From a virus (lineage: Duplodnaviria > Heunggongvirae > Uroviricota > Caudoviricetes), in the IMG/VR virus record IMGVR_UViG_2703718812_000010: a stretch of 43,350 nucleotides of DNA. One strand, written 5' to 3'. Position 1 is the stretch's first letter. Each line of letters opens with the position of its first letter. Shown here piece by piece: positions 1-3,862 of the stretch. Under the pieces are notes generated by a model. The model had not been told where the DNA came from. It saw only the letters and a list, made by a program, of their open reading frames with translations, and did not search any database. The position numbers and the translations under genes are program-made.

Positions 1-142
1 AACAAACCTGAATCATGCCGCAATGAGCACGCTTCTTGGTGAGAGGATTATGGACCGCATGACCATGAACGGTGGTCGGTGGGTGACGTTTAACTGGGAT
101 AGCTGGCGTCCAAATGTCAGCAATCAGAGGGTTGTAAAGTAA
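1..142 (+). CDS. 3' end of an unidentified gene (partial, runs off window start)
   Basis: Open frame from window start to TAA at 140-142, read directly from sequence; no recognisable motif. Confidence 0.25.
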   Translation, partial: TNLNHAAMSTLLGERIMDRMTMNGGRWVTFNWDSWRPNVSNQRVVK

Positions 143-145
143 TTT

Positions 146-880
146 TTGTTGGAGGACGTTTTAATGGAAACTGTATTTGACGCACTGAAAGCACTGAAAA
201 AAGCCTCTTCACAGGTAGTGGCATCGCGCCTTGGAATCAGCCGCGAAGATGCTGTCAACGAACTGTGGAAACTGAAGCGCCGTGGTGAAGCGGATAACAA
301 GGGTTCGATGTGGTGGCTGATTCAGGCTGGTGAAAGTGAACCAGTGTCACCGGTACCGAAAGTGACAGCGCAAATGCTGACTGAGGCGATTGAACATCAT
401 GGCCCACAAACGGCGGATGAGCTGGCACTGATGTTCGGGATTACCTCCCGCCGGGCGAATTCATCACTGGCCATGGCAATCAGCAAAGGGCGTCTGATTC
501 GCGTGAATCAGGGCGGTAAATTTCGGTACTGCATACCGGGCGCTGATTTACCGGCAGAGCCGAAAGCCGCATCCATAGCGGAAACGGATGGTAAAGCCTT
601 TCCTCAGCCAGCAGGTGTTGCGTTACCAGTCGGGGAAGCGGAAACACAGGAAGAAATAAAAACGGAAAGTGTGGCGGTCACAGTGCAGTCACAGCCGTCG
701 TTCACCAGAAAGCATCCGGATGGTCTGATTTTACCATCGCTGCATGTGGCTAACCGCGAGCTGCGCCGGGCAAAAGGTCAGGTTCAGAAGTGGGAGCGAG
801 TCTGCGCCGCGCTGCGGGAGCTGAACAAGTGCCGGGATATTCTCCGGGATATTACCGCCACCAGAGAACAGCAGCGGTGA
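146..880 (+). CDS. hypothetical prophage protein, 244 aa
   Basis: Long ORF in ORF track; no motif recognised; start may be an internal Met. Context: cluster of small prophage-type genes. Confidence 0.45.
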
Positions 881-2069: not shown

Positions 2070-2627
2070 ATGAGCACTATTACCAGAGAACGCGCGGAGA
2101 TTAAATCATACATCACAGGCTTCCTGAGCGACTCGGCGCACGATAACAAGTCTTCAGACAGCCTGCTGGCTAATGTGTTTCGTATCGCGCTGGCATCACT
2201 GGAAGCAGAGCCGATAGCAATGGTAGTGCCTGATGAAATGGATTTGCTTACCTGCCATCTCGACGGTGTAACTAAAACATATGCTGATGGCTGGAACGCC
2301 TGCCGCGTCGCCATGCTTCAGGCCGGAAACTTTCGGGAAAATAAGAATTCGTCAACCAACAATTTTCGGGAAATCTCGGAAACGTCAACCAGATCTCCGA
2401 TAACTCTGGATGGCTGGATAAGCTGTACTGAGCGAATGCCTGAAAAGAGCCAGAACGTGCTTATTTCGATGAATATCGATAGCGAGGCTGGGCCATTAAT
2501 ATATTCCGCACGCTATCTCGGAGGCACGTTCCGGCGCGGAGGTATAGCAGTTAGTCCGGGTAATGATCTTAGGCAAGCAACCCACTGGATGTCGCTACCA
2601 GAACCGCCGCAGGAGGTGAATCAATGA
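2070..2627 (+). CDS. hypothetical prophage protein, 185 aa (C-terminal WISCTERMPE region reminiscent of DUF551-type prophage proteins)
   Basis: ORF starts 1 nt after the previous stop; family resemblance is from memory only and was not searched. Confidence 0.45.
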   Translation: MSTITRERAEIKSYITGFLSDSAHDNKSSDSLLANVFRIALASLEAEPIAMVVPDEMDLLTCHLDGVTKTYADGWNACRVAMLQAGNFRENKNSSTNNFREISETSTRSPITLDGWISCTERMPEKSQNVLISMNIDSEAGPLIYSARYLGGTFRRGGIAVSPGNDLRQATHWMSLPEPPQEVNQ

Positions 2628-2917
2628 CCTGGCCTGAAGCATTCACAACGGTAGGAATTGCGATGGCGGTGGCGCTGGTGGTGTATTCGATTTGCCGCTG
2701 GGGATAAAAACGGTTTGCGGGAAAAGGATAGTTAAGTAGAATTGCAGCGGGTGCTTGAGGCTATCTGCCTCGGGCATGAACACCAACGGCAGATAGAGAA
2801 AAGCCCCAGTTAACATTACGCGTCCTGCAAGACGCTTAACATTAATCTGAGGCTCAATCCATGCTGAACACATGTAGGTTAGCCTCTTACGTGCCGAAAG
2901 GCAAGGAGAAGCAGGCT

Positions 2918-3073
2918 ATGAAGCAGCAAAAGGCGATGTTAATCGCCCTGATCGTCATCTGTTTAACCGTCATAGTGACGGCACTGGTAACGAGGAAAGA
3001 CCTCTGCGAGGTGCGAATCCGAACCGGTCAGACGGAGGTCGCTGTCTTCGTAGACTACGAATCTGAGAAGTAA
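2918..3073 (+). CDS. hokD: Hok/Gef family type I toxin (HokD/RelF-like), 51 aa
   Basis: Translation MKQQKAMLIALIVICLTVIVTALVTRKDLCEVRIRTGQTEVAVFVDYESEK has the Hok architecture: one TM helix followed by the conserved RK.LCE.R....EVA.F..YE periplasmic tail. AGGAGA sits 8 nt upstream of the ATG at 2918. The ORF-track start at 2861 is an in-frame upstream extension. Confidence 0.75.
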   Translation: MKQQKAMLIALIVICLTVIVTALVTRKDLCEVRIRTGQTEVAVFVDYESEK

Positions 3074-3080
3074 GAGACCA

Positions 3081-3103
3081 GGCGGGGGAGTAATCTCCCG
3101 CCA
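3081..3103 (+). other. 3' stem-loop of the hok transcript (GGCGGGGGA / TCTCCCGCC)
   Basis: Imperfect 8-9 bp inverted repeat immediately after the hok stop; no T-tract follows, so more likely an mRNA-stabilising end structure than an intrinsic terminator. Confidence 0.35.
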
Positions 3104-3192
3104 CCTCTGATGTGTCAGGCATCCTCAACGCACCCGCGCTTTACCATACTGAAAATGCTGTTTGAATGTTCATCTCTGAAAGAGGACTATGA

Positions 3193-3537
3193 ATGAAAAA
3201 GGTATTGATTGCAGCACTTATTTCCGGTGTGTCTTTTGGCGCTTTTGCACAGCAGGGTGGTTTCCAGGGGCCAGAAGCAGAGCGTTCAACAGTAGCGCAG
3301 GCAAAAGAACTGAAGGATGATGCATGGGTTATCCTTGAAGGGAGCATCGTTAAAAAAGTGGGTGATGAACGTTATGAGTTTCGTGACAATAGCGGGACAA
3401 TTGTCACGGATATTGATGACAGCGTATGGGCCGGGCAGAATGTTTCTCCGAAAGACAAAGTAAGAATTGAGGGTGAAATTGATAAAGACCTGAGCAGTGT
3501 TGAAGTTGATGTAAAGGCACTGAAATTATTAAAGTAA
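3193..3537 (+). CDS. YgiW/YdeI-family periplasmic OB-fold (BOF) protein, 114 aa
   Basis: N-terminal signal peptide MKKVLIAALISGVSFGAFA; remaining sequence resembles the BOF stress-protein family. Confidence 0.65.
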   Translation: MKKVLIAALISGVSFGAFAQQGGFQGPEAERSTVAQAKELKDDAWVILEGSIVKKVGDERYEFRDNSGTIVTDIDDSVWAGQNVSPKDKVRIEGEIDKDLSSVEVDVKALKLLK

Positions 3538-3546
3538 CCGCCCCTG

Positions 3547-3573
3547 CTTGTTAAGCCCGTCTTACTGACGGGT
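3547..3573 (+). terminator. intrinsic terminator after the YgiW-like gene
   Basis: Stem CCCGTC (3547-3552) / GACGGG (3558-3563) followed by TTTTCTGTTT. Confidence 0.55.
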
Positions 3574-3658
3574 TTTCTGTTTGTACATTCCGGCGTATTG
3601 CCTTACAATTCGCGCAGTCAGCCTGAACAACTGACACCTGCTGTCACCGGAGAATCCG

Positions 3659-3862
3659 ATGACACAACACATAAAATCCCACAATTCTGAAGCCGACCCG
3701 GAAATTAAGCAGGGGAGGCGTTTTCGTGCGCCTCAGTATGGCTGGTTTCACTATCTGTTCTGTACGATCGATGAGGCAGATATGTGTAACCAGGTGAATC
3801 ATTTGATACCGACAAGGGTTTTAGTGAAAGGAGGTGAAATCACCTGTAAGATGCTGAAATAA
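3659..3862 (+). CDS. hypothetical protein, 67 aa; ends 10 bp before the prophage left terminus
   Basis: ORF only; could be an intact small gene or the remnant of a gene disrupted by the insertion. Confidence 0.3.
   Translation: MTQHIKSHNSEADPEIKQGRRFRAPQYGWFHYLFCTIDEADMCNQVNHLIPTRVLVKGGEITCKMLK

Follow-up and report, generated by a model that had tools for sequence, protein, structure and literature searches.

A hok/sok-family type I toxin-antitoxin locus, very probably an intact hokW/mokW/sokW allele, in the early-right region of a lambdoid prophage

The window analysed here is the whole 43,350-nucleotide stretch of the IMG/VR virus record IMGVR_UViG_2703718812_000010. A small toxin gene of the Hok family lies between positions 2,700 and 3,140, together with an overlapping upstream frame, an antisense RNA gene and several RNA elements. 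These features are listed below in order of position, with the basis of each assignment in brackets.

2643-2873, minus strand: ORF of 76 aa (ORF list)
2714-2742, plus strand: putative hokW promoter, weak -35 TTTGCG at 2714-2719, 17-nt spacer, -10 TAGAAT at 2737-2742 (reading of the sequence)
2749-2760, plus strand: tac element GGGUGCUUGAGG, 5' end of the hokW mRNA (start of the RF01794 match; pairing in the MFE fold; covariation)
2749-2777, plus strand: alternative 5' hairpin, or tac stem (predicted in the fold of 2749-3108)
2799-2869, minus strand: sokW antisense RNA, 71 nt (phage 933W annotation; fold; probe match)
2802-2854, plus strand: leader hairpin complementary to SokW, the Sok target (MFE fold; covariation)
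2861-3073, plus strand: mokW frame, 70 codons, in frame with hokW (ORF list; 933W annotation; Shine-Dalgarno GAGG at 2849-2852)
2876-2904, minus strand: sokW promoter, -35 TTGCCT at 2904-2899, 17-nt spacer, -10 TAACCT at 2881-2876, +1 at G2869 (reading of the sequence)
2918-3073, plus strand: hokW toxin gene, 51 aa (ORF list; Pfam PF01848; Shine-Dalgarno AAGGAG at 2903-2908)
3046-3070, plus strand: hairpin with CUACGAA in a 7-nt loop at 3055-3061 (MFE fold; covariation)
3081-3102, plus strand: 3' stem-loop after the hok stop codon, 9 bp, loop GUAA (MFE fold)
3123-3135, plus strand: fbi element CCUCAACGCACCC, pairing with the mRNA 5' end (MFE fold; covariation)

The hokW ORF encodes MKQQKAMLIALIVICLTVIVTALVTRKDLCEVRIRTGQTEVAVFVDYESEK. 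This product matches the Pfam family HOK_GEF (PF01848) with an E value of 4.3e-23 and 81 bits, against a cutoff of 22, and the AAGGAG motif is located 9 nt before its ATG. HokW contains M1, C15, T17, L29-C30-E31, and E40, which are the seven positions conserved in >80% of homologs, shifted by one (bioRxiv 10.1101/2025.08.07.668861). The original prediction had described a 51-aa Hok-family toxin with a strong ribosome-binding site and a 3' stem-loop, and all three elements were found where it had placed them; the Rfam match and the folding z scores given below put the signal far above chance.

The genes hokW, mokW and sokW are already known: they were named in the record of phage 933W in 1999 and dissected experimentally in prophage Sp5 in 2021 (Takada et al., PMC8621323). 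Mapped to the window with an offset of 139, the GenBank annotation of 933W places sokW at 2799-2869 on the minus strand, and mokW (2861-3073) and hokW (2918-3073) on the plus strand. A three-way alignment showed that the hokW DNA is identical to hokW of 933W and Sp5 and that the mRNA span, 2749-3140, shares 390 of its 392 nt with 933W and with Sp5 (VT2-Sakai). Of the two differences, one changes the apical loop of the Sok hairpin (2826) and the other the base of the 3' stem-loop (3081); both leave the coding sequence, the promoters, tac and fbi untouched. The HokW and MokW coding sequences are identical in the three elements, sokW is the same except for the one loop base, and the promoters, tac, fbi and 3' hairpin are shared. 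The flanks are also alike: a 27-aa ORF precedes the locus and a YgiW/BOF gene follows it. Of the 16 primers and probes used on Sp5 (PMC8621323), 14 could be placed on the window exactly; primer YO-352 mismatches at a single natural nucleotide, 3081, and primer YO-421 at the four deliberate changes of the sokW -10 (2875, 2876, 2879, and 2881).

Beyond these two phages, about 500 complete E. coli genomes, many from O26, O145, and O157 strains, contain the 551-bp segment 2640-3190 with 100% identity; RefSeq labels the product there 'Hok/Gef family protein' (WP_000813258.1). The segment is 97.3% identical to Stx phages of the phage collection. The locus is thus very probably an intact hokW/mokW/sokW allele, a type I toxin-antitoxin module of the hok/sok family, within the early-right (nin-like) region of a lambdoid prophage. 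The original proposal of a type I toxin locus of the Hok family in a prophage region is correct. As a discovery the locus carries little weight, since it has been named and characterised before and recurs without change in hundreds of E. coli genome sequences. It is of practical use for annotation: the Hok protein is all that RefSeq records here, and the sokW RNA, the mok frame and fbi can be added with exact coordinates, while the 76-aa antisense ORF can be discarded.

The carrier differs in its setting from the known elements. In the window, a DUF551 gene stands on one side of the locus and the DUF968/rusA/Q genes on the other, within the early-right part of a Rac-like lambdoid prophage; in 933W and Sp5 the locus maps close to the right end of the prophage. 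A further difference is a Mu-like prophage that begins 711 bp downstream of the hok stop codon in the window.

The label 'hokD-like' used in the original prediction was only partly apt. HokD of E. coli K-12 (RelF, from the Qin prophage) is indeed a relative, with 47 of 51 residues identical (92%) and four differences; however, the window product is HokW at 100%, and the K-12 hokD locus has no leader. Both genes lie in lambdoid prophages and share the 3' hairpin and fbi. In K-12 the homology reaches back only about 16 nt from the ATG, to where relE ends; hokD there has neither tac, nor the mok start, nor sok with its -10, and no Rfam leader match was found there. A terminator is present after fbi in K-12 hokD, unlike in the window. 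A locus that abuts relBE and lacks leader, mok and sok, as hokD is defined in K-12, is therefore not what the window contains. Since K-12 hokD is without tac, mok start, sok and Rfam leader, the window locus is the complete form and hokD a truncated relative.

Many chromosomal hok loci have been inactivated, K-12 hokD by loss of its leader and K-12 hokC by an IS186 insertion, and the window locus might likewise have decayed into a silent remnant, as the five K-12 loci have, with expression and toxicity lost. This is very improbable, because no part of the locus is missing and it differs by only 2 nt from the Sp5 locus that was shown to be toxic and regulated, with neither change in the coding sequence, promoters, tac or fbi.

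Upstream of the toxin gene, the Rfam model RF01794 ('sok') matches 2749-2923 on the plus strand with 113.5 bits (E 3e-25; gathering threshold 59) over the full model (positions 1-157 of 157), and it is the only gathering-level Rfam match in the whole window. A reading of this match as the antisense RNA itself was rejected: the match lies on the hok strand, and the K-12 match shares its strand with hokC/mokC and is opposite the annotated sokC. Because it matches the hok-sense strand and ends at the hok AUG, the model describes the hok mRNA leader and not the Sok RNA. Matches to the model were recorded in the window (2749-2923, plus strand), at locus L006 (902-1054, minus strand) and at locus L054 (232-403, plus strand).

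The beginning of the match coincides with the probable start of the hokW mRNA. The putative -10 box TAGAAT lies 6 nt before GGGUGCUUGAGG, so that +1 would be near G2749; hokC-type and Photorhabdus loci have TATAAT or TATATT boxes 6-7 nt upstream of a conserved GGG 5' end. The MFE fold of the 392-nt mRNA (2749-3140) has a z score of -7.2 and joins the two ends of the molecule by 12 bp between tac (2749-2760) and fbi (3123-3135). The original prediction had set the limits of the locus at 2700-3110, which is too tight on the right, where fbi extends it to 3135. When the 3' end is cut to 3108, energy prediction (fold of 2749-3108) lets the 5' end form the local tac stem instead. The fold also buries the mok Shine-Dalgarno sequence, GAGG at 2849-2852, in the leader hairpin 2802-2854.

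These structures were compared among related loci. A scan of one genome per species yielded 47 loci, of which the 30 complete ones were aligned; they come from Escherichia, Shigella, Kluyvera, Photorhabdus, Pantoea, Citrobacter, and two unassigned Enterobacteriaceae/Proteobacteria assemblies. Covariation was counted by taking the structure from the fold of the window and scoring it on the 30-locus alignment. The window structure had 84.6% of its cells paired, compared with 37-47% when the partners were slid by 1-3 columns, and compensatory changes occurred at 17 pairs, a count reached in 0 of 500 shuffles. Seven of the pairs with compensatory changes among the 30 loci belong to the leader hairpin 2802-2854, and the 3' stem-loop 3081-3102 had 96.7% of its cells paired.

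The pairing of the mRNA ends is also maintained. At the tac-fbi pair 2752/3132, 17 loci have U-A and 11 have C-G, and the cognate tac-fbi duplex has an energy of -18 to -28 kcal/mol in all 30 loci, compared with -10.8 +/- 2.8 kcal/mol for shuffled partners. A column-wise count of the distal half of tac-fbi was rejected, since it is off by one register in Photorhabdus as a consequence of a bulged C in Escherichia, and the duplex energies of the individual loci were used instead. The tac-fbi swap test is asymmetric because a tac of the U type also pairs with an fbi of the C type through G-U pairs.

The hairpin at 3046-3070, inside the toxin gene, contains two covarying stem pairs (C-G in 15 loci and U-A in 14; G-C in 20 and A-U in 7), and the motif TACGAA is invariant in the 30 loci. 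Its CUACGAA loop equals the anticodon loop of tRNA-Arg2, the substrate of TadA. A3057, in hokW codon 47 (TAC followed by G), is a candidate site for A-to-I editing by TadA, which would convert Tyr47 to Cys. Editing by TadA of the corresponding codon has been described in other hok genes (bioRxiv 10.1101/2025.08.07.668861).

Hok genes 91-100% identical to that of the window also occur on tiny contigs in assemblies of unrelated taxa, namely a 275-bp contig of Acinetobacter idrijaensis, a 431-bp contig of Xanthomonas pisi, and a Candidatus Scatousia MAG. These three are most simply explained as contamination by E. coli or phage DNA.

Opposite the leader, the minus strand carries sokW, with its 5' end at 2869 and its 3' end at 2799; a sok-type antisense gene is thus present at the site where one had been predicted, with the promoter TTGCCT-17-TAACCT. 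The start at G2869 is the sokW 5' end in the 933W record, and the Northern probe YO-592, with which the transcript was detected in Sp5 (PMC8621323), matches 2840-2869 exactly. In the predicted fold of SokW, the first 14 nt are single-stranded and lie over the mok start codon; a long hairpin follows, and the RNA ends in GGGGCUUUU. The folding energy is -30 kcal/mol, with a z score of -5.0. The changes engineered in the 'promoter-less' mutant of Sp5 fall on the -10 assigned here, at 2875, 2876, 2879, and 2881 (PMC8621323). The geometry of the sok promoter is conserved in 30 of 30 loci, and nearly all of them keep a sok -35 (TTGCCT or TTGACC), the 17-nt spacer, a -10 of the TAnnCT type, and the U-rich tail.

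A search of the minus strand for a promoter and terminator had been proposed in the original prediction. The consensus sigma-70 and terminator scan of 2500-3300 called nothing, the hokW promoter included, whereas the sokW promoter and the GGGGCUUUU end were found by reading the sequence. The empty scan was rejected as evidence that a promoter is absent, since the sok promoter of an R1-type locus also escapes it and since the sokW -10 has been defined by mutation (PMC8621323).

The in-frame extension from 2861 had been judged to be probably not a protein; this did not hold, as the extension is nothing other than mok, listed as mokW in the 933W record, with its ATG kept in 30 of 30 loci. GAGG lies 8 nt upstream of this ATG. 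All 30 loci have the mok ATG 56-58 nt upstream of the hok ATG, in frame with hok in 23 and in another frame in 7, which argues for a role of mok translation and not of its product. Comparison of these sequences indicates that mok is a translated regulatory frame rather than a spurious ORF. An out-of-frame mok in plasmid R1 was considered and rejected; an R1-type plasmid locus has an in-frame mok ATG 57 nt upstream, and the in-frame mok of the window is therefore normal.

The ORF at 2643-2873 had been considered probably not to be a protein, which agrees with the comparative data: it is interrupted after 9-37 codons in most close relatives and has no Pfam match. One Stx phage record (AP004402.1) calls a long ORF that is antisense to both the hok leader and the gene upstream, ORF-38 (1-534, minus strand), a hypothetical protein; this is probably over-annotation, as the frame is not conserved in relatives. 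That the functional product should be the 70-aa protein from 2861 or the 76-aa minus-strand protein is scarcely credible. Both overlapping ORFs do exist, and the longer antisense ORF has been annotated in that phage record, but the broken and unmatched minus-strand frame, together with a mok start whose position is conserved in spite of its different frame in 7 of 30 loci, speaks against either protein.

The organisation of the locus is that of the better known members of the family. The R1-type plasmid locus has a leader that matches the same Rfam model with 87 bits, an antisense promoter at the corresponding position, also with a 17-nt spacer, and likewise the 5'-3' pairing and the 3' hairpin. 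The proteins are more distant, HokW and R1 Hok being only 44% identical (PMC8621323). The SokW hairpin has an extra apical segment of about 18 nt compared with R1, there is no terminator after fbi, and the locus is carried by a prophage and not by a plasmid. The E. coli hokC/mokC/sokC (gef) locus, which adjoins nhaA on the chromosome, has the same layout, an in-frame mok that starts with MLNTCR as in the window, and a leader match of 118 bits; its toxin is about 80% identical, its Sok hairpin is shorter, and the K-12 copy is interrupted by IS186 immediately behind the 3' hairpin.

The end of the transcript is where the window departs from its relatives. No terminator hairpin was found after fbi and before the YgiW/BOF gene (window 3136-3192), nor at the corresponding place in 933W; going downstream on the plus strand, a terminator-like site is first met at 3553-3585, past the YgiW/BOF gene. 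In loci of the hokD, hokC, Photorhabdus, Citrobacter, and R1 types, a terminator hairpin follows fbi at a distance of no more than about 30 nt. The missing terminator counts against the preferred explanation given below, as it would leave the 3' trimming step without a defined mRNA end. hokW and the YgiW/BOF gene may be co-transcribed.

The following mechanism is proposed, in which 3' trimming, refolding and mok-hok coupling are carried over from the plasmid R1 paradigm. The weak promoter would produce a stable hokW mRNA starting at G2749. The full-length mRNA, with 2749-2760 paired to 3123-3135 and the ribosome-binding site of mok buried, would by virtue of these two features be closed both to ribosomes and to SokW. 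Upon removal of the 3' part, the 5' end would refold into the local hairpin. The 71-nt SokW, made from 2869 to 2799 on the opposite strand, would then pair over the mok start region and block translation of mok and, by coupling, of hokW. Once SokW is gone, mok and hokW would be translated, and the 51-aa peptide would enter and damage the inner membrane.

The toxicity and antisense-transcript tests proposed in the original prediction have already been carried out on the Sp5 locus, which is 2 nt different (PMC8621323). HokW of Sp5 arrests growth when expressed (Takada et al., PMC8621323). The native Sp5 fragment becomes harmful only when the sokW -10 is mutated, and growth is then partly restored by sokW in trans; both RNAs, hokW and SokW, are present in Sp5 lysogens (PMC8621323). 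Mitomycin C treatment leads to the disappearance of SokW, after which HokW is found in the inner membrane, in a RecA-dependent manner, and deletion of the locus halves the release of phage (PMC8621323). The most likely role of the window locus, by analysis of these results, would be to fire at prophage induction and help early lysis.

The original prediction had suggested another role, that of an addiction module which kills, by post-segregational killing, the cells that lose the prophage region. In its favour are the precedent of R1 hok/sok, the 933W record, which carries the note 'prophage maintenance', the intact state of all the regulatory parts in the window, and the 100% conservation of the locus across about 500 complete E. 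coli genomes. It nonetheless appears doubtful. The 933W note is a prediction, and the experiments with hokW-sokW report help to lysis and phage release, not stabilisation (PMC8621323). Chromosomal hokA, hokB and hokC, as far as the summary in bioRxiv 10.1101/2025.08.07.668861 goes, caused no killing after loss, nor after rifampicin. An abortive-infection defence, in which a lytic phage would shut down host transcription so that SokW is depleted and HokW released, is quite improbable, since hok genes are not enriched near defence systems.

For firing at prophage induction, the reading preferred here, a trigger can be suggested from the position of the locus. hokW is oriented in the sense direction within the delayed-early phage operon and has no terminator after fbi, from which two consequences could follow, though this arrangement is unlikely. 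The hokW mRNA may continue through the BOF gene as far as 3553-3585, in which case fbi would act inside a longer transcript. At induction, antiterminated transcription from the early promoter would meet the sokW promoter head-on and silence it. Such read-through would explain the RecA-dependent loss of SokW in Sp5, and the switch would be wired to early transcription and not to loss of DNA.

The prophage that carries the locus is itself interrupted. A 38.8-kb Mu-like prophage, with Mu transposase and AAA ATPase genes, occupies 3785-42612 and is inserted between the YgiW/BOF gene and the DUF968/rusA/Q genes of the lambdoid prophage, where it separates the early-right operon from the antiterminator gene. 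It is flanked by a 5-bp direct duplication, ATATG, at 3780-3784 and 42613-42617. E. coli E2865 has an empty site at this point, and no complete E. coli genome in the collection has the prophage/Mu junction. As the carrier prophage is split by this insertion, a role in phage release may be moot in this particular genome.

Two minor observations concern the left edge of the locus. Divergence from 933W/Sp5 amounts to 13 differences in the 109 nt upstream of 2749 (about 12%), compared with 2 in the 442 nt downstream (2749-3190), and the sharp drop at 2749 may mark a recombination boundary where the hok cassette begins. Upstream of 2749, a 27-codon hydrophobic ORF, MTWPEAFTTVGIAMAVALVVYSICRWG, extends from 2624 to 2707 on the plus strand and overlaps the stop codon of the DUF551 gene by ATGA. 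It is unannotated in the records examined (RefSeq E2865, 933W, VT2-Sakai, and Stx2 converting phage I). The frame is open in both 933W and Sp5 despite seven residue changes, and it may encode a small membrane protein.
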